Below, piece after piece: positions 17,243-39,307 of a stretch of DNA of 64,000 nt. The position numbers and the translations under genes are program-made. Each line of letters begins with the position of its first letter. The stretch's first letter is position 1. Location: assembly GCA_025061835.1 (NCBI GenBank), contig JANXAC010000002.1, forward strand, positions 37,185-101,184, in the 5' to 3' direction. This DNA comes from Spirochaetota bacterium. GTDB lineage: Bacteria > Spirochaetota > Brevinematia > DTOW01. The notes beneath the pieces were generated by a model. It saw only the letters and a program-made list of their open reading frames with translations. It did no database searches and had not been told where the DNA came from.

Positions 17243-17551
17243 ATGGTAGAAGTAAAGGTAGCGTATGATAAAGGCAGGGTAAGAATAGAGATGAATGGGC
17301 ACAGTGGATACGGCAAGAAAGGTGAGGATATAGTATGTGCAGGAATATCTGGAGTATTACAATTTGTAATAATACATTTCTTCAACAACCTGCGAAGAGA
17401 TGGTAATTTTAAACTATCAAATGGTGTTGGTTTTGTTGAGGTTATGTTGAAGGAAGAAGATAGAGATCTAATATCTTCATTCATTGAGTATCTAAAACTA
17501 GTTGAAAAGAGTTATCCAAACTCGTTGAGAATAGATGTTGTTAATAAGTAG
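17243..17551 (+). CDS. prp: ribosomal-processing cysteine protease Prp (DUF464 family)
   Basis: GHSGYGKKGEDIVCAGISGVLQ matches the Prp His/Cys catalytic region; about 100 aa. Confidence 0.72.
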   Translation: MVEVKVAYDKGRVRIEMNGHSGYGKKGEDIVCAGISGVLQFVIIHFFNNLRRDGNFKLSNGVGFVEVMLKEEDRDLISSFIEYLKLVEKSYPNSLRIDVVNK

Positions 17552-18551
17552 TATTCAAATTCTTAACTATCCTGTGCCTTATTATGTTTATCTCTCCAGA
17601 TACACTTCTCAAGAATTTCTCAAGCATTTCTATCACTGGCAAGTTCTGCGGAAACCTTGGACTATCAGAAAACACAGATGTCATGTTTAGTAAGTATCTC
17701 GTAATAAAGTTAAACCTACTAATAACCTCCTTATCGTCTGTAGAACTACTTAACATATCCAATCTTGAGAAGTTAAAAGTTCCAGTTTTACCTAGAAGAG
17801 TTTTTCTATTGTATCCATAATTGATGTAACAACTGTAGAGATTATTATTTTTATATATCTTTGAAGTTTCTGATTTTCTGATGATTATATCATCATTCAG
17901 TAAGAAAGTTGGTATATCAAATGTTTTTACATGCCCAAATACACTTGGGCTATCAACATTGAGTCCTTGAAGATTTCCATCTTTTACAAAGATTGTCTGG
18001 TTGTCAGAGTATTCATCTATCTTTTTAGTTATAAATTCTATTTCAATGTTCTGTAATAAAATCTCAAGAACATACTTGTCCCACAACTCGCTTACCTTGC
18101 TTATCTCAGGCTCAATCGGGTATATCGTGTATTTAATACTTTTCTCTATTTCTATGACACTTCCATTTACAATTCTGTCATTAAGGACACTTCTAGGTGC
18201 GATGAGGTATCTCAATACTTCATACTCAACTGATTTGGATAATTCAACTGGTTTGTTACTCTCCACCTTAATTAAGCCTGGAACTATCGTAATAAACCCG
18301 ACTACCGATGGCCTAAACATCAATACAAAGTCCAGTCTGACAACACTGTCAAAGAATATTATGGTTTTAGGTTTAAAACTTTGGTCTTTCTTATCAATAC
18401 TTCCTATTTCAACGAATTCGTTGTTGTTATAACCTGATACACCTTGTGTTGGGAAGTCTTGAATATTATCACTCCCCGTGATACCTATATAATCCTCTTT
18501 GAATATATCTCTTATTGAATTTATATTAAAACTCATACTATTCCTCAACAA
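17541..18551 (-). CDS. hypothetical protein (336 aa)
   Basis: ORF track; overlaps the upstream 602-aa gene by 14 bp (same strand), implying co-translation; no recognisable motif. Confidence 0.5.
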   Translation of the reverse strand: MLRNSMSFNINSIRDIFKEDYIGITGSDNIQDFPTQGVSGYNNNEFVEIGSIDKKDQSFKPKTIIFFDSVVRLDFVLMFRPSVVGFITIVPGLIKVESNKPVELSKSVEYEVLRYLIAPRSVLNDRIVNGSVIEIEKSIKYTIYPIEPEISKVSELWDKYVLEILLQNIEIEFITKKIDEYSDNQTIFVKDGNLQGLNVDSPSVFGHVKTFDIPTFLLNDDIIIRKSETSKIYKNNNLYSCYINYGYNRKTLLGKTGTFNFSRLDMLSSSTDDKEVISRFNFITRYLLNMTSVFSDSPRFPQNLPVIEMLEKFLRSVSGEINIIRHRIVKNLNTTY

Positions 18552-20346
18552 ATATGGTTATAAGAGAAGAGAATGCGTTAAGTTTTTCAACCGCTCTTTC
18601 AACACCTTCTACAAATTCTTTGTTATTTTGTCCTCCTATCCTGTGTATGTTAATGACAGTTTTAGGGAATGGTGAATATATATCATCAGAAATGAACTTG
18701 AGTATTTTATACATTCCTTTGAAGATATCTTTAAAAGCACTAAGGAATTCAAAGCATACACCATTTATTATCATTATCTTTCTCTCTATAACTTTTTTGT
18801 TTGATTCGTTAGCTAGGAGTGATGGGGAGGATATGAACTTAGATAACAGTATATGATACTCTCCACCTTGCTCAACTGCCTTAACAAAATCTTCCATTTT
18901 AGCCCTAACAGGCTCCACTTTTGAGTATAATTCAGAGAACGTTTTTTGAAGTTGTTTATCCGAGAACGAACCAGCAACTATCAAATTATTCACCTTATCT
19001 TTTATATCAGGCTCCCAAATAGTTTTGATGAAAATGACCGATATTCCGAGAAGTTTAGTGTATAGAAATGGTGGGAGACCATACTTTGAGAAAAGGCTAC
19101 TAACATTTGTTGAGTATATACCGTATTCTTGTATTTCAATAGGCTTGCCAAAAATGACAGTCATATATTTATCTATAAGTCTGTTATTCTTCTCATCCAT
19201 CTTTGATATTATTAGTCTTTTGTATTTTTCATTTATTACTTTTGAGAATTCTTTGAATAATGAATAGTTAGTCTTGATTACAAATGGTTTGTGATTTGGG
19301 TCCTTTGAGATGTAGGCAACCAGGTCAGCTATATTAATTTTGCTGATATTATCATTCAAGGTCTGGAAGAAGTTAGGAGATAATTTATTTTTGATTTCTG
19401 ACGCTTTCTGATTATCTCCCGAGAAGTTGTTTATGTAGTCTAACATTATATTGATATACTGAGTCGTGTACACATCATCCACAACCAACGATAATAAGAT
19501 ACTCTCAAGATCCTTAATGTGATTTACAAGTCCTTGAGGAGAGATAGACTTAAAACTGACTTTACCTCTTTTGAGTTCTGAAAACTGTGTAAACCTCCTT
19601 ACAATTGTTTCAAAATCAAAGTATGCAAACTCCCTAAGTTTAATTATGTTATTGAAAATACCATCTGCACGCTTTACCAGATCTTCTGGTATAGAAGATA
19701 GTATAGCACTTATTTCATCTTCAATTGCTCTAATGGCACTTTTCATACTTTTTGCTTTATCAACAATATTACTAACAAAACTTGTGGTTAGTTCTTTATA
19801 TCTCTCAACAACATTAGGAAGGTCTGTAATACTTTCAAAAAGATATTCACAGGATGACTTTTGAACACCTATGCCTTTCCAGAAATTCTCATTCTCCAGA
19901 AATATGTCAAAAATGGATCGTAAGGTCTTTGCATACTCATATAGTGATAGTATGATTCTACCAAACTCTCCGGATAATCCACCTTTCGATGGATCTATCA
20001 TACACGGCTTACTTCGCCTCAGCTTCTGCTCTATTTTCTTTAGTGCCTTGCTCTTCTTGTAATCACTGGATGGCATGATATTAAAGACAGAAAGTAGAAA
20101 CATTAATATTCTGTCCCACAGTGAAAGTTCTACATCTATAACCTCTTCCCTCCTTATTGGTAGCTCAACGAGTTCTAACTCTCCTTGAGCGGACATTTCG
20201 GATACTTTTGTAGAAGTGTATTTTTTCAGTTTTTCAGCCAGTTTTTTTCTTTCCACTTCATCAGTCTTCAACGCTTCTGCATCAAATTTTCTGTCAAAGA
20301 CACCTAGTTTTTTAGCTCTATCAACCGTTTCCTTATCGTAAGGCAT
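18538..20346 (-). CDS. hypothetical protein (602 aa)
   Basis: ORF track; 24 bp downstream of the gamma-CA-like gene on the same strand; charged N-terminus, no nucleotide-binding or catalytic motif recognised. Confidence 0.55.
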   Translation of the reverse strand: MPYDKETVDRAKKLGVFDRKFDAEALKTDEVERKKLAEKLKKYTSTKVSEMSAQGELELVELPIRREEVIDVELSLWDRILMFLLSVFNIMPSSDYKKSKALKKIEQKLRRSKPCMIDPSKGGLSGEFGRIILSLYEYAKTLRSIFDIFLENENFWKGIGVQKSSCEYLFESITDLPNVVERYKELTTSFVSNIVDKAKSMKSAIRAIEDEISAILSSIPEDLVKRADGIFNNIIKLREFAYFDFETIVRRFTQFSELKRGKVSFKSISPQGLVNHIKDLESILLSLVVDDVYTTQYINIMLDYINNFSGDNQKASEIKNKLSPNFFQTLNDNISKINIADLVAYISKDPNHKPFVIKTNYSLFKEFSKVINEKYKRLIISKMDEKNNRLIDKYMTVIFGKPIEIQEYGIYSTNVSSLFSKYGLPPFLYTKLLGISVIFIKTIWEPDIKDKVNNLIVAGSFSDKQLQKTFSELYSKVEPVRAKMEDFVKAVEQGGEYHILLSKFISSPSLLANESNKKVIERKIMIINGVCFEFLSAFKDIFKGMYKILKFISDDIYSPFPKTVINIHRIGGQNNKEFVEGVERAVEKLNAFSSLITIFVEE

Positions 20347-21118: not shown

Positions 21119-22309
21119 ATGGCTGAAGGTAAGTTCGAGAGAAAGAAGCCCCACATCAATGTAGGGACTATAGGTCACGTTGACCACGGTAAAACAACTT
21201 TGACTTCTGCTATTACTAAAGTTCTATCAAAAAAGGGCTACGCTAAAGAAAAGAATTATGAAGATATTGACAATGCTCCTGAAGAAAAAGCTAGAGGTAT
21301 AACTATTCAGATTCAGCACATAGAATACGAAAGTGATACAAGACACTACGCACACATAGACTGTCCAGGACACGCAGACTATGTTAAGAATATGGTTACG
21401 GGTGCAGCACAGATGGATGGAGCAATACTTGTTGTCGCTGCTAATGATGGTGTTATGCCTCAAACAAGAGAACATGTCTTGCTCGCCAGACAGGTAGGTG
21501 TTCCTTACATTGTAGTATTCCTAAACAAGATTGATATGGTCGATGACCCTGAAATCATTGATATAGTTGAAGAAGATGTAAGAGATCTCCTGAAGAAGTA
21601 CGGCTACCCTGGTGACAAAGTTCCTATCATAAGAGGTTCTGCTTACAAAGCCATGACAAACCCTGACCCAAACACAGACGGTAAGAGTATATTAGAGCTC
21701 CTTGATGCTCTTGACAAGTTTATCCCCGAACCCGTTAGAGAGATTGATAAACCATTCCTTATGCCTGTTGAAGATGTATTCTCCATCTCAGGTAGAGGAA
21801 CTGTAGTTACCGGTAGAGTTGAGAGAGGTAAGATCACTCCAGGTGAAGAAGTTGAGATAGTAGGACTTTCTTATGAGGTCAAGAAAACTGTCGTTACATC
21901 AATAGAGATGTTTAGAAAGGAACTTGACTCCGCTATAGCCGGAGACAACGCTGGATTGCTTCTAAGAGGTATTGGAAAGGATGAAGTTTGGAGAGGACAG
22001 GTTATCTGTAAGCCTGGGTCAGTTACACCTCATAAGAAATTCAAGGCAGAGATATATGTTCTGAAGAAAGAAGAAGGTGGAAGACATACTCCATTCTTTG
22101 CTGGTTATAGACCTCAGTTCTTCTTTAGAACCGCAGATGTCACTGGAACTGTTACGAAGATACCAGGAGAAATGGTAATGCCAGGAGATAATGTGAATGT
22201 TGAGGTTGAATTAATATACCCTGTTGCTATGGAAAAGGGACTTAGATTTGCTATAAGAGAAGGTGGTAAAACAGTCGGTGCAGGTGTTGTAACAGACATT
22301 ATTGAGTAG
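21119..22309 (+). CDS. tuf: translation elongation factor Tu
   Basis: [11 protein letters not shown]-loop, DCPGH, NKIDMV and [13 protein letters not shown] motifs; 396 aa; AGGAGG RBS. Confidence 0.97.
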
Positions 22310-22322
22310 TTTCGGTGGTTCT

Positions 22323-22631
22323 ATGGTTTCAAAAATAAGAGTAAAACTAAAGTCATACGACGCTGAAGTAATTGACAAAACTGCCAAAGACATATGTAAT
22401 GTAGTCAAGAATGTAGGGGCTAAAACTGTAGGCCCCATACCATTACCAACAAAAATAAGGAGATACACTGTCTTAAGATCTCCTCACATAGATAAAGACT
22501 CAAGAGAGCATTTTGAATATAGACTTCACAGAAGGCTAATAGACATACTTGAGCCATCTCAAGAAGTTATAGATGCTCTCTTAAGATTGGAAATACTACC
22601 TTCAGTTGATGTGGAGATAAAACAAGATTAG
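22323..22631 (+). CDS. rpsJ: 30S ribosomal protein S10
   Basis: [20 protein letters not shown]...[15 protein letters not shown] matches S10. ORF track start 22302 is a TTG inside the tuf 3' end; the first ATG is at 22323. Confidence 0.93.
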
Positions 22632-22671
22632 TTATAGATCAAGAATACCTAGATTTTATTTGGAGGAAGTT

Positions 22672-23325
22672 ATGGGAAAGTCTTTTACCGGAAAGGGGCT
22701 TATAGGCAAGAAGATAGGAATGACGCAAATATTCGTTGGTGAAAACGTTGTTCCAACTACAGTTATAGAAGTAGGTCCTTGCACCATATTACAAGTCAAG
22801 ACACCTGAAAAAGACGGATACAGTGCAATCAAACTCGGTTTTGGAGCTGTCAAGTCTAGGGTAAAAGATAAGAGTGATAAGACAAAGTATAAGATAATAC
22901 ATAAACCTGCTATAATAAAAGAGTTTAGAGTTGATGACCCTACAAAGTTTAAGGCTGGAGATACTCTAGATGTTTCTTATCTTGAAGGCATCAAGTATGT
23001 TGATGTAAGTGGATACTCAAAAGGTAGAGGCTTTCAAGGTGTTATGAAGAGATGGGGCTTTTCCGGAGCTCCTGACTCACACGGACAATCGGTGTTCCAC
23101 AGAAGACCTGGTTCAATAGGACAGCATACATTCCCCGCTAAAGTATGGAAAGGTAAGAAAATGCCCGGTAGGATGGGTGGTGAAAAGGTAACAGTCCAAA
23201 ATCTGGAAGTTATTCATATTGATAAAGAGAAAAACCTTATCCTCGTTAAAGGAGCAGTACCTGGCTACAACGGCAGTTATGTTTTTGTGAGAGAGGCTAT
23301 CAAGAAATCAAATCTGGTTGGTTAG
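22672..23325 (+). CDS. rplC: 50S ribosomal protein L3
   Basis: GLIGKKIGMTQIF N-terminus and L3 body. Track start 22660 is TTG overlapping GGAGG (22662-22666); ATG 22672 lies 5 nt downstream of that RBS. Confidence 0.93.
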   Translation: MGKSFTGKGLIGKKIGMTQIFVGENVVPTTVIEVGPCTILQVKTPEKDGYSAIKLGFGAVKSRVKDKSDKTKYKIIHKPAIIKEFRVDDPTKFKAGDTLDVSYLEGIKYVDVSGYSKGRGFQGVMKRWGFSGAPDSHGQSVFHRRPGSIGQHTFPAKVWKGKKMPGRMGGEKVTVQNLEVIHIDKEKNLILVKGAVPGYNGSYVFVREAIKKSNLVG

Positions 23326-23332
23326 TTTATTG

Positions 23333-23421
23333 GGAGGGGTGGCCGAGCGGACGAAGGCGACAGTCTTGAAAACTGTAGTACCCTCTATAGGGTACCGGGG
23401 GTTCGAATCCCTCCCCCTCCG
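23333..23421 (+). tRNA. tRNA-Ser (anticodon UGA), class II with long variable arm
   Basis: Hand-folded cloverleaf: acceptor GGAGGGG/CCCCTCC, D-stem GCC/GGC, anticodon stem ACAGT/ACTGT with loop CTTGAAA (anticodon TGA at 23367-23369), 7-bp variable-arm stem GTACCCT/AGGGTAC, T-stem GGGGG/CCCTC with TTCGAAT loop, discriminator G; CCA not encoded. Confidence 0.85.
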
Positions 23422-23426
23422 ATCCA

Positions 23427-24308
23427 TCAAACATACTCTATTACTACACCTATCCTCTGCTTCCTCTTACAATCCTTGAAAAAGTATACTATTGATGTTT
23501 CAGTGAAAGGAAACTGTTGTTTATACTTACCGATACTTTCAGGCTTCATCACTCTGGTTATAACCATATCAGAAGTCTGCATCATTAGAGTATAGCCTCT
23601 ACCTCTTACAGGAATACTCTGAATGAAATCATTCCTAGCCAAAAATCCAATAATGTTATTCCTTCCCTCACTCTCAATGGACTTTGATATCTCATATATA
23701 TCTGACATACCAAGATAATCATTTATTCTTATAATAAGCATCTCAGAATTTACCATTAGGTCAACTCTAACTTTAGCACTAGACCTATTAAGACTTATGT
23801 TTGCCTCAACTATATTATCTATGATCTCTGAAGATGATATAATAATATGTGCCCTGTCAACTTTATCACCAACTTCAAAGTAATCTAGAAATGATACTAT
23901 GATGTCCATTAGTTCCTCAGGAATAAGTTTTATGTTACCTTCTAGTATAACTGAGTCTCTTTGAGTATTATTCATTATCTCAACAGGAATAAACGAATTC
24001 ACATCACTACCATGGTGTATCAAAGTGTCAATAATGCCTAATAAAAATTCTTCTTTATATGAAAGTGAAATGTTCCCTTTGTAGAACCTGTTGTAAGTTC
24101 CTGATATGAAAACTAGTATGTTTCTATTACCTTCTTTTAATAGATTGTTCCTTACAAAATTTATATATGCTGATGTATCAGTTATTACTATTTCGTTGTT
24201 AGGTATAAGGTAATATGGAGAACCTTTACCGTTCAATACTATAACATCAGAGTATATTCTTGAAAGTAGACTAACTATGCTATGATTACTACTTGCAATG
24301 ACAAACAT
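23427..24308 (-). CDS. hypothetical protein (293 aa)
   Basis: ORF track; last gene of the eno-rpmI-386aa-293aa same-strand series; no recognisable motif. Confidence 0.5.
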   Translation of the reverse strand: MFVIASSNHSIVSLLSRIYSDVIVLNGKGSPYYLIPNNEIVITDTSAYINFVRNNLLKEGNRNILVFISGTYNRFYKGNISLSYKEEFLLGIIDTLIHHGSDVNSFIPVEIMNNTQRDSVILEGNIKLIPEELMDIIVSFLDYFEVGDKVDRAHIIISSSEIIDNIVEANISLNRSSAKVRVDLMVNSEMLIIRINDYLGMSDIYEISKSIESEGRNNIIGFLARNDFIQSIPVRGRGYTLMMQTSDMVITRVMKPESIGKYKQQFPFTETSIVYFFKDCKRKQRIGVVIEYV

Positions 24309-24377
24309 ACATCAGATAATAGAAAAATATAAGAATTTTTAAGATTATTTCAAAAATTCTCTAGGAATGAAAACCTT

Positions 24378-25538
24378 TTAGTAAATTTTCTTGACAACTT
24401 TACCATTATAGAAGTACCTGAAACCTAGTAATCCTCTATTAACGAGCTCATTAACACTAGAAACTACCTTATCTTTCTCAAGACCTCTTAAACTACCAAA
24501 GTGCTCCCAAAGAAATCTATCATTCACACCCATAAGAGACTTTACTCCCTCTTCAAATTCTACATATTTACCTTGAAACGAACTACAGATTATTCTTTCG
24601 TTTCTATCTAGCACTTCTGTGTTGTTTTTGTTGTGTTTTAAATACTTTAGTCTTTTAGACATGAGATAGCAAGACAGATACTCTCTTTTATCTCCCTTAA
24701 ATCCAAGAAAGTTTAACCATTCAAGATACTCTTCTCTTAATCTAGGATACTTATCTAACCTTCTCGCCAATATTCCTTCATCCTTATGTGATACTATTAT
24801 CGTATAATTATCAGAAGGGATGTTTAGTGTATCGTGTATGAATTCTGAAAGTATTTTAGGTATCCTTATATAAACTACATTGTTAAAATTCACATTCCTG
24901 ACTAGGAAGCGAAATTTATATGGAACAACTAGAAAACCTCCTTCAACCTTGAACTTGCTCAAGACTACTCTTCTAGTATAAAAATCAATATCCTTAAGCA
25001 CTAAACAACTAATATCCTTTAGAGAGTTCTTGATCAAAAGAGATTGAGTAATATCTTTTGATATGATTAAAGTCCTTCTCGTTTGTAGATTACCTAAATC
25101 TCTAGTAATGAATTCCAATTTTTTGCTAGTAAAAAACACAGATATCTTGTATTCGTAATTTTCTCTTACTTCAACCTTTAAACTAGAATAGGACTTTAGA
25201 CTCTTAAGAAATTTCCTCAAGTTTTTTCTGTTCATGCAGCCTGAAACGACAGAAACCTTCTTGAATTCTGATCCTCTAACAAATTCGTAGAGTTCTCTAT
25301 ACTTTTCTCTATACAGGGGTGATAGAGGATATATAAATTCAGGGTCTATGATGAACACCTCATGATCTCTAGTATCACCCTTGAAGAATTTGAATGATTT
25401 GTACCCGATAATTTTTAAAGGTGATAAATTTATAAACTCTTGGTTCAAGCGAGGATTTACAATAAGAGTTGGGGAGTCTAGCTTCACCACCTCCCCTAAC
25501 ATTATCTTCCTCTTTTCAGAAGGGAAGATTAAGTTCAT
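24378..25538 (-). CDS. hypothetical protein (386 aa)
   Basis: ORF track; start ATG abuts the rpmI stop (TAGATG). An alternative ATG 12 codons in (about 25502) has a better RBS (AAGAGGAAG). No recognisable motif. Confidence 0.5.
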   Translation of the reverse strand: MNLIFPSEKRKIMLGEVVKLDSPTLIVNPRLNQEFINLSPLKIIGYKSFKFFKGDTRDHEVFIIDPEFIYPLSPLYREKYRELYEFVRGSEFKKVSVVSGCMNRKNLRKFLKSLKSYSSLKVEVRENYEYKISVFFTSKKLEFITRDLGNLQTRRTLIISKDITQSLLIKNSLKDISCLVLKDIDFYTRRVVLSKFKVEGGFLVVPYKFRFLVRNVNFNNVVYIRIPKILSEFIHDTLNIPSDNYTIIVSHKDEGILARRLDKYPRLREEYLEWLNFLGFKGDKREYLSCYLMSKRLKYLKHNKNNTEVLDRNERIICSSFQGKYVEFEEGVKSLMGVNDRFLWEHFGSLRGLEKDKVVSSVNELVNRGLLGFRYFYNGKVVKKIY

Positions 25539-25733
25539 CTAGAAAATCATTCTCTTCACTTTCTTTGCTTGGGCGTAAGTGAGTTCTAACTCCTGACTAA
25601 GTCTTCTTTTTCTTCTTCTTGATTTGTCAGATAGTAAGTGTCTCATACCTTGTTGTCTTCTAAGTATTTTACCAGATCCCGTGATTTTAAACCTTTTCTG
25701 CGCAGAAGTGTTTGGCTTGTTTGACTTTGGCAT
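25539..25733 (-). CDS. rpmI: 50S ribosomal protein L35
   Basis: MPK...KRFKITGSGKILRR...HLL.DKS.RRKRRL matches bL35; GGAGG RBS upstream; 64 aa. Confidence 0.88.
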   Translation of the reverse strand: MPKSNKPNTSAQKRFKITGSGKILRRQQGMRHLLSDKSRRRKRRLSQELELTYAQAKKVKRMIF

Positions 25734-25748
25734 AATCTACCTCCGATA

Positions 25749-27059
<1,311 letters not shown>

Positions 27060-27498
27060 TTAAAATCTATATTTCTTTTTATTTTAAGTCCTCTTAAAAC
27101 TTCTTCTCAAGTTATCAAAGATTATAACAATAAAGTCTAAAATTTTTTGTGAGATGTTTCATAAAATAGTTTAAGGTTATGGAGATGGATATTTTTAGTA
27201 TATCACACCTCTTGCTACTCTGTTTTCTTTCTTTTCAAAACAACACCAAAAGGAGGTGATATGATGTGAGGAGAGATGATATGCAACATATACGAGAGGA
27301 CAAGAAAATTATGAAATACCTTAACGGGCATCTGGAGAACATATAAAAACAGACTTGTAGTTATCTGCTAGAGCAACACTTGATAGACACTAAAAGCATT
27401 AACTATACCCAAATAACTCTTAAATTTTGGAATTTATTGACTTCAGTCGCATCTAATTGAGAAAAACGATGCTACTAAATTAGAATTAAATTAGAAGT

Positions 27499-29229: not shown

Positions 29230-29991
29230 ATGGAAAACTTGATAGGTATAGGGTATCTTAAATTCTTCAGTGAAGGAGATAATACTATGTATGATAAAGT
29301 TGACATAAATATCAAGAACGATAATGACTTTGTTGAATTAATTAACAAGTTCATAAAAGAAGGTAAATATTTCTACTTAAAGTTCTACGGTATATCACCA
29401 GAAATTGAAAGAAGGGTAAATCTAGCTATCACTAAGATTTTTGAGAATTACGAAAGGGGAGACTTATCTGACATTGTATATACTTGTGTTAAAGAACTAA
29501 TCCTCAACGCTAGCAAAGCTAACATAAAGAGAATAGTGTTTGAAGAACATAATGTTGATGTAAATGATGAAAAGAGCTTCTTGGTAGGTATGATGAAGTT
29601 CAAAGAAGAACTTTCCGAGATAAACCTACCTAAATATATTCCAAAACTAGCAAACAAGGATCTATACATAAGTGTAGCATTTTACCATTCCAAAGATGGT
29701 GTTAGGATTGAAGTTGTGAATAATGTAAGCATGAGTGAATTCGAAAACAAAAGGATAAGAGAGAAACTTAAGAAAGCGATGGGTTACGAAGATATATCAC
29801 AGTTTTACTTAGAACAAGGTGATGAACTTGAGGGAGCAGGATTAGGAATTGCCCTTATTGTAATGCTCCTTAAGGGAGTCGGTATTGACCCTTCACTTTT
29901 CAGAATATCCGGACCTAACAATAACTATGTCCTAGCCAGAATAGAAGTTCCTCTAACCGAAAATTATGTTAGTGTAAGAAAAAGAAATTAG
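29230..29991 (+). CDS. GHKL/HATPase_c-like protein (anti-sigma-factor-type kinase or histidine-kinase-like; tentative)
   Basis: N-box-like ELILNASKA, G1-like DGVRIEVVNN, G2-like EGAGLGIAL in the canonical order; GGAGG RBS 5 nt upstream of ATG. Confidence 0.42.
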   Translation: MENLIGIGYLKFFSEGDNTMYDKVDINIKNDNDFVELINKFIKEGKYFYLKFYGISPEIERRVNLAITKIFENYERGDLSDIVYTCVKELILNASKANIKRIVFEEHNVDVNDEKSFLVGMMKFKEELSEINLPKYIPKLANKDLYISVAFYHSKDGVRIEVVNNVSMSEFENKRIREKLKKAMGYEDISQFYLEQGDELEGAGLGIALIVMLLKGVGIDPSLFRISGPNNNYVLARIEVPLTENYVSVRKRN

Positions 29992-34346: not shown

Positions 34347-35108
34347 ATGTCTCTTAAGGAAATGATCTCAATATCTACAAAAGTAATCCCTTCAGTAGAT
34401 GAAATAATTTCAGAATCTCTCAAGAGACACAATTTTACTCCCCAAGATGTAGAAGAAAACTTTTCCGATTCAGTAGAAACTTTAGAAAGAATAGCAAATG
34501 GTATATATAATGAATATGAAAACAAATGTTTGGAAACTTTTGTACAAAAATGGATAAGACAAAGAAGACTAGACGACATAGAGAAAATAAAGATCCTCAA
34601 CTGTGAAAACTACGTAGAAAAACTTAAAAACGAGTTTCTTGAATTCGCAAAAGCAATCCAAAATCTTGAAAAACATCTTGGCAATATGAGAAAAGCAAGA
34701 GGAGGAAAGAGCTTTGAAAAGATCATTCTAATACTTCTTAGAATGATAGAGATTACTTGTGAGATACCGAAAGGAGAATATAGAAATAGGCTAAAGAGAA
34801 TAGATATAGTAATACCATCATCTCAGCAAGCCATAAATTATCCAGACAGGTCTGTATTTCTAACCTGTAAAAGGACATTGAGAGAAAGATGGAAACAAGA
34901 AGTCCCTCAAGTAGGACCTAACTAGACAGTGTACCTGATAACTATTGACGATGATATAAGTCAAGGAAAAGCCGAAGAAATACGTTATATGGGTTTAATA
35001 GCTTTCACAAAGGATAGTGTAGCACGCAATATAAACAAGCCTTGGATAAGAGGACTATCAAATTTACCCAAAGACATAAAACAAAAGATAGGAAGAGCAA
35101 AGAGGTAG
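34347..35108 (+). pseudogene. presumed restriction-endonuclease partner of the downstream methyltransferase, interrupted by one in-frame TAG (34923-34925)
   Basis: Own translation: the frame of the 192-codon ORF continues open for 60 more codons (TVYLITIDDD...KQKIGRAKR) to TAG 35106-35108, 3 nt before the methyltransferase ATG. Nuclease identity is inferred from position only (RIDIVIP/FLTCK could be a degenerate PD-(D/E)xK core). Confidence 0.4.
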
Positions 35109-35111
35109 AAT

Positions 35112-36374
35112 ATGATACAGAAAGAACTGTTTGACAAAGGTCTATTTAATACTGACTTCCTAGCATCAGATACCTCTCACAAGAGACAAAGAGAGCCTTA
35201 TTTTGACTTTAAGGGAATTAAAGCTAGTGAAGGTATTTACGGCATTCACCCATATCCAGCAATGTTCCATTACAGAGTCGTTAGAGAGTTAATAAAGAAT
35301 TTTTCAAATGATAATAGCATTGTTTTTGATCCGTTCCTAGGCTCGGGAGTCAGTGCTGTTGAGAGTATAATAAGCAGGAGAAATTTCATAGGATACGACA
35401 TAAACCCTCTAGGTGTTTTAATATCAAAAGTTAGGACAACACCTATACCAACAAGAGAACTTCTAGAGACTCTCAACTTCATAGTTCAAAATTTTGATAA
35501 TCAAGCAGCTGAAAAACCCTCCTTCACAAATATTGATTACTGGTTTAATGAGAGTGTGGCTAAATCTCTATCAAAAATAAAGAAAACAATCCTGCAGATA
35601 CAGGATAGAGTAAGAGACTTTTTCTTAGTAGCATTTTCAGAAACGGTAAGAAAGGTATCACTAACAGACCATAATGAATATAAGCTTTTGAAAGACAGTT
35701 CAAAGATAGTAGAAGATGTTAATGTTATAAAAACATTTAACGAGATCTCCCAAAGAAACATAAAACTACTAACAGATTTTTACAGAACCAATGAAGTTTC
35801 AGGCAAAATAATCTCAATTCAAGTTAGGAACATATTAGATGGATTGGACTTTGACTACCCTGCTGACTTAATTATAACCTCTCCTCCTTATGGTGACTCT
35901 AGAACTACTGTTGCCTATGGTCAGTTTTCAAGACTATCTCTACAATGGATAGGAATAAACGAAAATATTGACAAAAAATCACTAGGAGGCAAGATTAGTA
36001 AAATTCATACTAACTTACCTTCAGAGACTTTATATACTACCCTCAAGGAAATTCTAAAAGTTGATGAAAGGAGAGCTGTAGAAATATTTTCGTTCTACGA
36101 AGATCTTTACAACGCTATAAAGGTAATAGCAAAATCGGTAAAGAGAGGTGGTTATGTATGCTTTGTTGTCGGAAACAGAAGAGTTAGAAAAGTAGATCTT
36201 CCAACGGATATAATCTCTGCTGAATTCTTTATTAATGAAGGACTAGAACATATTAAAACAATAGTTAGAAAAATCCATAACAAGAGAATACCAATTCAAA
36301 ATTCTCCCTCCAACATAAAAGGAAATACTGACACAACGATGCGATACGAATATATTCTGATACTCCGTAAGTAA
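35112..36374 (+). CDS. amino (N4-cytosine or N6-adenine) DNA methyltransferase
   Basis: SAM-binding FxGxG-type motif (VFDPFLGSGVSAV) followed about 175 aa later by catalytic SPPY (IITSPPYGD), an alpha-class-like arrangement; AAAGAGG RBS. Confidence 0.8.
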   Translation: MIQKELFDKGLFNTDFLASDTSHKRQREPYFDFKGIKASEGIYGIHPYPAMFHYRVVRELIKNFSNDNSIVFDPFLGSGVSAVESIISRRNFIGYDINPLGVLISKVRTTPIPTRELLETLNFIVQNFDNQAAEKPSFTNIDYWFNESVAKSLSKIKKTILQIQDRVRDFFLVAFSETVRKVSLTDHNEYKLLKDSSKIVEDVNVIKTFNEISQRNIKLLTDFYRTNEVSGKIISIQVRNILDGLDFDYPADLIITSPPYGDSRTTVAYGQFSRLSLQWIGINENIDKKSLGGKISKIHTNLPSETLYTTLKEILKVDERRAVEIFSFYEDLYNAIKVIAKSVKRGGYVCFVVGNRRVRKVDLPTDIISAEFFINEGLEHIKTIVRKIHNKRIPIQNSPSNIKGNTDTTMRYEYILILRK

Positions 36375-36500: not shown

Positions 36501-38969
36501 CTAGATAAACAGATTAATGTTTGAGTTTGAAGCGTTTGCGATGTAAGTAGCAACACCTCCTATTTTTATACCATCAATGAGTTCTTCTCTTCTTATTCCC
36601 ATAACATCCATAGACATCTGACAGGCAACAATTTCAACGCCACTCCTCATCGCATTCTGTATCAGTTCTTCAAGAGTTGAGATATTCTTCTTCTTCATAA
36701 GCCATCTTATCATCTTAGGTCCTATGCCAAACATATTCATTTTTGACAATTTTAGGTTTTCAGTCCCTTTTGGTAGCATCATACCAAACATCTTTGATAT
36801 GAGATCTTTCTTGACTTTTACCTTAGAGTTTTTCTTAAGAGCATTCAGACCCCAGAATGTGAAAAACATACTAACTTTCTTTCCCGCAGATAAGGCACCG
36901 TTTGCTATAACAAATGACGCTATCAGTTTATCAAGGTCATCATCAAATACTATTATGGTAGCAGAATTGTTAGTTGAGATAACATTTGAAGTAGAGAGTG
37001 TTTCTTGCGAAGACTTTTCTATCACAGCCTCAATTATTCCCTTATCTTGCTTTAGAGATAGTAATTTATTACCTGTAACATCGGTCCAAGCCTTGACATC
37101 ATTAGCAAAACCCGGGTCAGTTGCCTTTACAACGACTTTTGCACCTCTTTGGAGAGAATCCATACTCTGTTTCAACTTGAGTATAGGACCTGGACACTGT
37201 AATCCACAAGCATCAACTTCAACAACTACTCCTTCCTTTGTCTCCTTAAGTGGTTCTTGAGTCACAAGGTCAGATAGGTCAACTCTATATCCAGTATATA
37301 TATCCTCATTACCTTGCTTCTGGGTTACTACTTCATAAGTCTTGTATCCACCCGTAAGGTTATAAACCTCCTCAAATCCATTCTGATAAAGTATCCTACA
37401 AGCAACATAAGCTCTTAAGCCAACTCCACAATACACAATTATCTTTTTATCTCTTGGCAACTTATCAAGGTTATTTCTCAGTTCATCAACAGGTATATTA
37501 ACAGAACCTTCAATGTGTCCAAGATCATACTCATCTTTGGTTCTAACATCAAGCACAAAAATACTAGATTTATCACTGTTCAAAAACTCATCCCAAGTTA
37601 TTATCTTCTGCTTCCCACTCAAAACATTCTCTGCCACATAACCTGCTATGTTAACAGGATCTTTCGCCGAAGAGTATGGTGGAGCATAAGCATGATCTAG
37701 GTCAATCAAATCATAAACAGTTAATCCTGCTTGTATAGCTGTTGATAGAACATCTATCCTTTTATCAACTCCATCATATCCAACAGCCTGTGCCCCAAGT
37801 ATCCTACCATCTTCAGGAGAAAATATGAGCTTGAGAGACATAGGAAGAGCACCAGGATAATACCCTGCGTGAGATGAAGGGTGTATTATAACATACTTAT
37901 ACGGTATCCCTTCTCTCTTGAGTAGTTTTTCAGTTGCACCTGTAACAGCAACAGTTATATCAAAAACCTTCGCTATAGCAGTTCCTATAGACCCCTTATA
38001 CCTTCTAACATTACCAAAGACTATGTTATCGGCAACAATCCTACCTTGTAAGTTAGCAGGCCACGCCAAAGGAATACCTATCTTCTTCTTTATGACAGGA
38101 TGATAAACTTCAATAGCATCTCCAATAGCATATATATCAGGGTCCGAAGTTTGTAAGTAATCATTCACAACTATATGTCCTCTCTCTCCTATCTCAAGTC
38201 CCGCTTCCTTTGCTAGTTTACTCTCTGGTCGCACACCAATAGAAAGTATCACCATATCAACTGATAGTTTTCTACCACTACTCAAGTTAACTACTATCCT
38301 ACCATCAAGGTCCTTATCAAAACTTGCTACACTATCCTTAAGATAGAACTCAACATTCTTCGTTTTTAAGTGCTGATGAACCAAAGCAGCCATCTCAAAG
38401 TCAATAACCCCCATAACTTGTTCCATCGCTTCAACAATCGTAACCAGAATGCCTCTATGCGCTAGATTTTCCGCCATCTCAAGCCCAATAAATCCTGCCC
38501 CTACTATCACCGCTCTCCTCGGTTTGTTTGAATCAATAAATTCCTTTATCCTATCAGTATCTCTTATGTCTCTAAGAGTGAAGATATTTGGTAAATCTAT
38601 ACCCGGTATCGGTGGTTTAACTGGTGTTGCTCCCGGTGAAAGCACAAGTTTATCATACTTCTCCGTATATTCATTACCAGTTCTCAAATCCCTAACTAAA
38701 ACTTCTTTTTTCTCTCTATCAATCTTCAAAACTTCACTCCTAACCCTAACATCTACATTAAACCTCCTGATAAAGCCTTCAACTGTTTGAACCAAAAGAT
38801 TACTCCTCTCTTTTATCACACCACCTATGTAGTAAGGTAACCCACAGTTAGCATAAGATATATACTCACCTCTCTCAAAAACCACTATCTCTGCCCTCTC
38901 ATCCAGTCTTCTCAACCTAGCAGCAGTTGACATACCTCCAGCAACACCACCTACTATCACGCACTTCAT
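36501..38969 (-). CDS. four-domain sulfur oxidoreductase: CoA-disulfide reductase/NADH oxidase - rhodanese - TusA - DsrE-like
   Basis: FAD/NAD Rossmann VIVGGVAGG with redox Cys in SYANCGLPY; rhodanese active loop YCGVGLRA; TusA CPxP motif (CGLQCPGPIL); C-terminal DsrE-like region (EIVACQMSMD). Track start 38981 overlaps GGAGG; true ATG likely 38969 (MKCVIVGG). Confidence 0.8.
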   Translation of the reverse strand: MKCVIVGGVAGGMSTAARLRRLDERAEIVVFERGEYISYANCGLPYYIGGVIKERSNLLVQTVEGFIRRFNVDVRVRSEVLKIDREKKEVLVRDLRTGNEYTEKYDKLVLSPGATPVKPPIPGIDLPNIFTLRDIRDTDRIKEFIDSNKPRRAVIVGAGFIGLEMAENLAHRGILVTIVEAMEQVMGVIDFEMAALVHQHLKTKNVEFYLKDSVASFDKDLDGRIVVNLSSGRKLSVDMVILSIGVRPESKLAKEAGLEIGERGHIVVNDYLQTSDPDIYAIGDAIEVYHPVIKKKIGIPLAWPANLQGRIVADNIVFGNVRRYKGSIGTAIAKVFDITVAVTGATEKLLKREGIPYKYVIIHPSSHAGYYPGALPMSLKLIFSPEDGRILGAQAVGYDGVDKRIDVLSTAIQAGLTVYDLIDLDHAYAPPYSSAKDPVNIAGYVAENVLSGKQKIITWDEFLNSDKSSIFVLDVRTKDEYDLGHIEGSVNIPVDELRNNLDKLPRDKKIIVYCGVGLRAYVACRILYQNGFEEVYNLTGGYKTYEVVTQKQGNEDIYTGYRVDLSDLVTQEPLKETKEGVVVEVDACGLQCPGPILKLKQSMDSLQRGAKVVVKATDPGFANDVKAWTDVTGNKLLSLKQDKGIIEAVIEKSSQETLSTSNVISTNNSATIIVFDDDLDKLIASFVIANGALSAGKKVSMFFTFWGLNALKKNSKVKVKKDLISKMFGMMLPKGTENLKLSKMNMFGIGPKMIRWLMKKKNISTLEELIQNAMRSGVEIVACQMSMDVMGIRREELIDGIKIGGVATYIANASNSNINLFI

Positions 38970-39307
38970 AAAAGCCTCCATAAACTACAAACAGTATATA
39001 GTATAATAAATATATTGAGATAATTATATCAAAGTTTGAAAAATCTACAATACTTGTAGTATTTTACATAACCAAAATAGATTAGATTTTATAAAGACAG
39101 CCTAAATCGTTAGAAAAAACACTAAACTTTATCACAACTCAAAAGAAACACACCTATGTAGAGAGGAAATTACTCACACTAGGATTACAGCAAAACCTTA
39201 AGGGTATATTACCTTTTAAATACTACTTTACCAAACTTTGAAGGTGAATAGGATATTAGGTTTTATCTTTAGTCCTCCCATCCAGATTGTTTATATTATC
39301 TACACAA

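Follow-up and report, generated by a model that had tools for sequence, protein, structure and literature searches.

In a window of 64,000 nucleotides (nt) from a Spirochaetota bacterium of the class Brevinematia (DTOW01; assembly GCA_025061835.1, contig JANXAC010000002.1, positions 37,185–101,184), the gene for ribosomal protein L35 (rpmI) lies behind the enolase gene (eno) and is followed by ORF386, a gene of 386 codons whose product appears to be distantly related to the RecQ helicase core and to have lost that core's catalytic motifs. We consider it probable that ORF386 is a pseudohelicase encoded in an rpmI-coupled operon and acting on RNA or the large ribosomal subunit, and that the gene beyond it, ORF293, encodes a separate regulator of the RsbW type. 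As judged from its alignments, ORF386 appears to be a new inactivated variant of RecQ in an unprecedented operon position.

The ORF386 family was compared with RecQ by profile alignment. Against E. coli RecQ, hhalign gave 294 collinear columns, placing residues 74–370 of ORF386 onto RecQ 156–482, and against a profile of seven RecQ sequences (E. coli and plasmid-borne recQ genes) the family reached a probability of 89% with an E-value of 2.1e-6 and a score of 56.1 over 295 columns. This score compares with at most 25.2 for 40 column shuffles of the ORF386 alignment and 21.5 for the reversed alignment. PriA from the same window, used as a superfamily 2 (SF2) control, yielded no helicase-domain alignment with the RecQ profile, and the RecQ signal is therefore not one of generic composition. 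When the protein was divided, residues 116–250 alone scored 36.6 (E 1.8e-4; shuffles ≤16), and residues 74–150 aligned onto RecQ 151–225 with a score of 21.1 (shuffles ≤15.2). Weak Pfam matches across the 11 family members were to Helicase_C (two members, best 7.6e-4), RQC (two), DEAD (one) and the helicase-like Utp25_C (one, E 0.0022), domains of the kind that make up a RecQ-type protein. In Foldseek, the seven best matches were all cores of the RecQ family, namely BLM and six chains of bacterial RecQ, and their alignments covered 436–484 columns. These independent methods consistently indicate a distant relationship between ORF386 and the core of the RecQ helicases. The core of RecQ (E. coli 1OYW, D. 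radiodurans 4Q47) consists of two RecA lobes, a zinc-binding subdomain and an RQC winged helix; ORF386 differs in its length (386 amino acids (aa) versus ~600), in a first lobe of only ~115 residues, and in being encoded after rpmI in a ribosomal and glycolytic operon.

The residues on which RecQ catalysis depends are missing from the family. The Walker A motif [AG]xxxxGK[ST] is absent from all 11 members, the nearest approach being a single GKS in P0016 (residue 347) that the others do not share, and global hhalign alignment places the sequence PSEKRK on PTGGGKS of motif I. The DExH/D motif (DE.[HD]) is likewise absent from all 11, its candidate position reading DPEF or being deleted in the global alignment. 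Motif III has changed from TATA to VSGC, and motif VI from QETGRAGRDG to HDTLNIPSDN, with no conserved arginine. ORF386 has no HRDC domain, and although its helical segment is collinear with the zinc-binding subdomain, the 11 members have no conserved cysteine columns or cluster. The loss of Walker A, of DExH and of the arginines in motif VI rules out a canonical ATPase or helicase function for ORF386, and predicts that it would carry out no ATP-dependent 3'–5' unwinding of DNA. What the family conserves are structural positions (R..V...F, IP....EF..D, FLNFLG and LRG) and a C-terminal hairpin, LGFRYFY..KKIY, where the model puts two strands. All 11 members are basic, with an isoelectric point (pI) of 9.1–9.8 compared with 5.3–8.6 for the seven RecQ proteins, and the pI of ORF386 ranks third among 52 window proteins, behind L35 and L3.

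An earlier, sequence-only reading of this stretch had placed the start of ORF386 at the base after the rpmI stop and ORF293 69 nt further on, both on the strand of eno, and this layout is correct. A public gene call (P0001, 374 aa) begins ORF386 at Met13, which leaves out residues 1–12 (25503–25538, minus strand) and hides the abutment; we regard the ATG that abuts the rpmI stop as the true start because the N-terminal sequence MNxIxPSEKRK is kept across the family. GGAGG lies 7 nt ahead of the rpmI ATG. ORF386 and ORF293 are real, fast-evolving genes under purifying selection: in comparison with relatives of 86% and 72% identity, the ratio of nonsynonymous to synonymous substitution rates (dN/dS) was 0.16–0.18 for ORF386 and 0.15–0.27 for ORF293, and 0.015–0.04 for eno and rpmI, while full-length homologues extended down to 25% identity for ORF386 and 33% for ORF293.

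We then examined the position of ORF386 in nine loci (the window, L001, L002, L016, L017, L018, L019/L020, L021 and L022; 86% to 25% identity). In 9/9 of these Brevinematia loci it is the third cistron, directly after rpmI, and eno precedes rpmI in all eight whose contig reaches the upstream region. The start of ORF386 abuts or overlaps the rpmI stop in every one (0 to −4 nt), with the junction reading TAGATG in the window, L016 and L017, TAA-t-GTG in L001, TAATG with a 1-nt overlap in L002, L018, L021 and L022, and ATGA with a 4-nt overlap in L019. The gene that comes after ORF386 changes between loci, being a convergent flavin reductase gene with clpP, ExbD, an ABC/Suf cluster or ORF293; in L019 only, a gene for RNase Y lies ~450 nt downstream. 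Because these downstream genes vary, the conserved unit is eno–rpmI–ORF386, and ORF293 is a neighbour by rearrangement. Termination–reinitiation is the most likely mode of translation since the start abuts or overlaps the rpmI stop at every locus: ribosomes finishing L35 would go on to translate ORF386, which would then be made in proportion to L35. The constitutive, growth-linked expression that had been proposed for both genes is upheld for ORF386 in so far as the tight rpmI junction conserved at all nine loci argues for co-expression; it does not extend to ORF293, which stands outside the unit.

Regulatory sites around the unit were also considered. The window DNA is AT-rich and chromosomal (~35% GC), and its best database matches are metagenome-assembled genomes of Brevinematia or 'Spirochaetes bacterium'. 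The number of promoter-like sites in the region did not exceed that in shuffled sequence, so that the site TTGAGA-18-TAAAAT upstream of eno is only positionally plausible. No cis-regulatory RNA of Rfam, the L20 leader and others included, was found around eno and rpmI, where the only matches were tRNA and antisense-tRNA artefacts. The intergenic region between the eno start and a divergent TPR lipoprotein gene (27048–27498) measures 451 nt, which is long for this compact genome; it has no Rfam match and carries promoter-like sites on both strands.

The slot occupied by ORF386 is one that belongs to rplT in nearly all other bacteria. A metagenome scan with L35 sequences of the clade, intended to find sister lineages, returned only generic L35 loci, which then served as the background against which gene order was judged: 80 unrelated loci of ≤57% identity, 72 of which had at least 400 nt downstream, with an L20 gene counted if it lay within 300 nt on the same strand. 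By this count rplT lies right after rpmI in 70 of the 72, bearing out the earlier statement that this is the position where rplT would normally be; the gene for IF3 is upstream in 51 background loci, and enolase or an ORF386 homologue occurs in none of them. The Brevinematia arrangement is a clear departure from the near-universal rpmI–rplT pair. Neither rplT nor infC was found in the 64-kb window and ~140 kb of related Brevinematia loci, which sample only a minor fraction of each genome. In E. coli, L20 acts as a repressor of rpmI translation, and translational coupling of rplT to rpmI brings rplT under control as well (PMC1888825). The Brevinematia unit has in common with the infC–rpmI–rplT operon that rpmI is followed by a cistron of the coupled type in the same position; it differs in that the upstream gene is eno and not infC, and in that the downstream gene is RecQ-like and not L20, with no L20-leader RNA found.

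The second gene, ORF293, appears to encode two domains. Its C-terminal domain has the features of a Bergerat (GHKL) ATP-binding fold and is, on remote homology, probably of the RsbW/SpoIIAB type, of a divergent RsbW kind. Residues E161, N165, D197, G200 and R235–L241, the last containing a G2-like G236-x-G238, are invariant, with the motif register taken from a low-probability hhalign alignment to an approximate SpoIIAB sequence. The Pfam family HATPase_c_2 gave weak matches in four of eight ORF293 members (best E 0.0049). Compared with the anti-sigma serine kinases RsbW, SpoIIAB and UsfX (HATPase_c_2), ORF293 appears to keep the Glu and Asn of the N-box and a G2-like GxG, and its G1 box reads DYLG. 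ORF293 would most likely be a partner-switching regulator of the anti-sigma-factor or serine-kinase type, sequestering or phosphorylating a partner within a sigma-factor switch. Its N-terminal domain was tried as a receiver domain and rejected: residues 1–115 scored 11.2 by hhalign against four receiver domains, below shuffles, and the domain is without an acidic pocket, having no acidic pair after strand 1. Leptospira LvrC combines a receiver (Rec) domain with an RsbW-like domain (PMC13269768; PDB 9QIH) and so resembles ORF293 in its two-domain layout; it differs in that the ORF293 N-terminus has no receiver similarity. Elsewhere in the window, a 253-aa ORF (29230–29991, plus strand) without a Pfam or NCBIfam match contains GHKL-like strings by eye (ELILNASKAN ... 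GAGLGIALI). It was considered as a paralogue of ORF293, and hhalign showed no relationship.

The genomic context of ORF293 sets it apart from the rpmI unit. Its homologues are always convergent to tuf–rpsJ–rplC–tRNA-Ser (L003, L011–L014 and L016), and the genes upstream of it are pfk–lysA in L003, L013 and L014 and a class II aminoacyl-tRNA synthetase with a short-chain dehydrogenase (SDR) in L012. It adjoins ORF386 only in the window, L016 (72% identity) and L017 (86%), because in this lineage the eno–rpmI–ORF386 block lies beside the tuf–rpsJ–rplC–tRNA-Ser block. The proposal that both ORFs are coupled to rpmI and eno therefore does not survive for ORF293, which is separated by a 69-nt gap with a promoter-like site and has this neighbour in three loci only. 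A functional pairing of the two genes, with joint transcription and coupling to rpmI and eno, is quite improbable and largely ruled out by the comparison of loci: they share a strand across a 69-nt gap in which no terminator-like site was found, and the adjacency kept in L016 and L017 makes read-through transcription possible in this lineage, but unrelated genes follow ORF386 in L001, L002, L019, L021 and L022, ORF293 comes after pfk–lysA or the aminoacyl-tRNA synthetase and SDR genes in L003 and L012–L014, and it is always anchored to tRNA-Ser and rplC. The promoter-like site in the gap (TTGAAA-16-TATATT) also speaks against a pair, and is not statistically distinctive in AT-rich DNA.

The ribosomal block convergent to ORF293 is a second point at which a ribosomal gene order, usually strongly conserved, is broken. 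The S10 operon is cut short in six Brevinematia loci, tuf–rpsJ–rplC being followed by tRNA-Ser(UGA) and the convergent gene, with no rplD, rplW or rplB; rplD was not found in the window or in the other fetched Brevinematia loci. One of the loci, L011 (JANWXV010000211.1, 719 nt), comes from a metagenome-assembled genome (MAG) labelled 'Candidatus Bipolaricaulota' (SKYG54). Its proteins are 95–99% identical to those of the window at the 3' end of ORF293 and in rplC, with tRNA-Ser between the two, and it is probably a mis-binned Brevinematia contig.

Both families are small. A word-indexed search of 5.8 billion proteins retrieved five relatives of ORF386 and eight of ORF293, and when 1.84 billion cluster representatives were searched exhaustively with an HMMER profile, ORF386 had only nine clusters, all at E < 1e-30 and with nothing weaker, while the profile search for ORF293 added only two further Brevinematia proteins. 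On these searches both families appear to be limited to Brevinematia. A scan of GTDB genomes with the ORF386 family gave no locus, and the taxonomic spread of ORF386 consequently rests on metagenome and Logan contigs together with two NCBI MAG contigs. Both families carry the annotation 'hypothetical' and are recognised by no current model: neither protein rises above threshold in Pfam or NCBIfam. The absence of a nameable motif, as reported by the sequence-only reading, thus holds at the level of those thresholds and not at that of profile comparison, which gives remote homology to RecQ for one protein and to RsbW/SpoIIAB for the other. Only at this distance is a relationship to well-studied families found, and there the fold families can be named and the functions are arrived at by inference. 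Matches to Pfam L19e_C (E 0.057) and NCBIfam PRK07034 were discarded as low-complexity noise from basic helices, and a search of PDB sequences with the family profiles, which returned a caspase-8 death-effector domain (E 0.007, 49 residues) and a designed repeat protein, was judged to have given chance matches. Scans of both proteins with PADLOC and PHROGs matched no defence or phage family.

From its fold and its lost motifs, ORF386 would be a pseudohelicase, a non-enzymatic scaffold that binds nucleic acid and lacks ATPase activity. Its target would most likely be RNA or the large subunit of the ribosome, whose assembly it might assist by analogy with Utp25 in eukaryotes, and this role is favoured because the coupling to rpmI persists while all other neighbours change. 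Precedents for such proteins are yeast Utp25, a DEAD-box-like pseudohelicase of the small-subunit processome that acts in ribosome assembly (PMC9539457), and D. radiodurans PriA, a primosome protein (PMC4504706). In both, the helicase fold is kept, the catalytic motifs are dispensable or degenerate and the protein acts as a scaffold (PMC9539457, PMC4504706); ORF386 differs in its derivation from RecQ. A more specific form of this proposal, which we put forward tentatively and regard as unlikely, is that ORF386, peculiar to this lineage, associates with the large subunit as a new ribosomal protein or as a factor in its assembly, and is made stoichiometrically with L35 from the coupled slot of rplT.

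Several observations weigh against the assignment of ORF386 to a pseudohelicase of RNA or the large subunit and of ORF293 to an RsbW-type regulator. The hhalign probability of 89% is not above 95%, and the RecQ profile contains only seven sequences. At the two ends of ORF386 the similarity thins out: residues 1–73 scored 13.1 against RecQ lobe 1, below shuffles, and the winged-helix region (residues 324–371 versus RecQ 423–477) scored only modestly above them. Confidence is low in the AlphaFold models of both proteins (ORF386, pLDDT 49.5; ORF293, 59.3), and because of this the fold matches lend support without being decisive. Abutment of a stop and a start is common in bacterial operons and does not prove reinitiation by itself. 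RNA or DNA binding and ribosome association are properties that we purely infer for ORF386, and an ancestry in RecQ points to DNA at least as much as to RNA. In addition, rplT was not located in the sampled Brevinematia loci. On the side of ORF293, the G1 box is DYLG and not DxGxG, the protein stays below the Pfam threshold for HATPase_c_2, with no Pfam or NCBIfam match for the window protein, and no STAS or sigma factor gene was found nearby among the ~50 window ORFs scanned with Pfam, a scan that did not take in small ORFs or the rest of the genome.

Of the other roles that ORF386 might have, we rank a passive DNA-binding one inherited from RecQ a close second to the RNA or large-subunit role. 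The protein would bind forked, single-stranded or G-quadruplex DNA without unwinding it, as a genome-maintenance or nucleoid factor, and its place after rpmI would simply provide strong growth-linked expression. This is a real possibility, for which D. radiodurans PriA is a bacterial precedent (PMC4504706), but it would leave unexplained why the coupling to rpmI is conserved in 9/9 loci while other neighbours vary, and proteins of the RecQ repair type are normally of low abundance and encoded outside ribosomal protein operons. An active NTPase or helicase working through non-canonical motifs is the least probable alternative. The conserved basic PSEKRK that aligns globally to motif I, and the purifying selection on the gene, would fit it; neither Walker A nor DExH/D occurs in the 11 members apart from the lone GKS of P0016, the arginines of motif VI are absent, and lobe 1 is cut to ~115 residues.

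Two further proposals start from the neighbours of ORF386. It might replace L20, rplT having been lost in the clade and a RecQ-derived protein having become a new component or obligatory assembly factor of the large subunit. ORF386 is basic, sits in the exact position and coupling mode of rplT, and no rplT or infC was found in the window or the ~140 kb of related loci, but these loci are a small part of each genome and do not establish the absence of rplT. ORF386 is also far larger than L20, a near-universal protein essential for 50S assembly, and bears no sequence similarity to it, a relationship having been tried and rejected when hhalign of the family against L20, with an approximate L20 sequence as query, scored 9.6 over four columns. 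We judge replacement very improbable. Somewhat less so, though still quite improbable, is a scaffold of the degradosome type that assembles with enolase as RhlB or CshA does, which would explain the linkage to eno. Enolase and an SF2 helicase occur together in the degradosomes of E. coli and B. subtilis, the unit has eno as its conserved opening gene, and the RNase Y gene stands ~450 nt downstream in L019. That proximity is seen in one locus only, the tightest junction of ORF386 is with rpmI and not with eno, and the known degradosome helicases are active DEAD-box enzymes, neither RecQ-like nor dead.

Table 1 Features of the eno–rpmI–ORF386 unit, ORF293 and the adjoining ribosomal block (positions in the window).
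Feature	Position	Strand	Basis
eno (enolase), first cistron of eno–rpmI–ORF386	25749..27047	-	Pfam Enolase_N 1.4e-61, Enolase_C 1.3e-128
Promoter-like TTGAGA-18-TAAAAT upstream of eno	27081..27110	-	Consensus scan, 10/12 matches
rpmI (ribosomal protein L35, 64 aa)	25539..25733	-	Pfam Ribosomal_L35p 1.3e-19
rpmI stop/ORF386 start junction TAGATG (ttctagATG), termination–reinitiation type	25536..25541	-	Sequence
ORF386, putative catalytically dead RecQ-core-like protein (gene including stop)	24378..25538	-	
ORF386 residues 1-115, shortened and degenerate N-terminal alpha/beta lobe, putatively what is left of RecA lobe 1, PSEKRK at motif I position	25194..25538	-	
ORF386 residues 116-250, predicted RecA lobe 2 (Helicase_C-like), motifs IV-VI degenerate	24789..25193	-	hhalign
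ORF386 residues 251-323, helical linker where RecQ has its zinc-binding subdomain, four cysteines lacking	24570..24788	-	Collinear hhalign
ORF386 residues 324-386, putative RQC-like winged helix, conserved aromatic/basic beta-hairpin LGFRYFY..KKIY at end	24381..24569	-	
ORF386/ORF293 gap, 69 nt	24309..24377	-	
Promoter-like TTGAAA-16-TATATT inside the 69-nt gap	24326..24353	-	Consensus scan, 10/12 matches
ORF293, two-domain protein, predicted C-terminal RsbW/SpoIIAB-like GHKL domain (gene including stop)	23427..24308	-	
ORF293 residues 1-115, alpha/beta domain; T43, D44 and F67 invariant	23964..24308	-	Model secondary structure
ORF293 residues 116-293, predicted Bergerat-fold domain; putative N-box SSEIIDNIVEAN (E161, N165), DYLG 197-200, RGRGYTL 235-241	23430..23963	-	
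tRNA-Ser(UGA), convergent to ORF293, 5 nt from its stop	23333..23421	+	ARAGORN; Rfam tRNA 58 bits
tuf–rpsJ–rplC block ending at tRNA-Ser, no rplD after	21119..23325	+	ORFs, Pfam L3, tblastn across loci

Other genes of the window drew attention in passing. An EcoRII-C-like endonuclease fragment (192 aa) lies beside an N6/N4 DNA methylase (420 aa) at 34347–36374 on the plus strand, likely a restriction-modification pair. On the minus strand, a protein of 826 aa in which rhodanese, TusA and DsrE domains are fused to a pyridine-nucleotide disulphide oxidoreductase (36501–38981) represents a multidomain protein of sulfur trafficking, and the gene for a 602-aa DUF5312 protein (18538–20346; Pfam 1.8e-21) runs into the start of a 336-aa ORF without a family match (17541–18551).

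Few gene pairs in bacteria are as conserved as rpmI–rplT, which is also a textbook example of both translational coupling and autogenous control. Across the whole clade studied here, rpmI has moved behind eno and seems to be coupled instead to a RecQ-like protein that appears to be catalytically dead, and two families of 'hypothetical protein' now have a fold family assigned to them. Together with an S10 operon that ends after rplC, the separation of rpmI from rplT reveals a broken ribosomal gene order in an under-studied class of spirochaetes. If ORF386 is indeed associated with the ribosome or with RNA, it would represent a bacterial pseudohelicase recruited from DNA repair into translation, and one would then have to ask how expression and regulation of rplT work after its uncoupling from rpmI.

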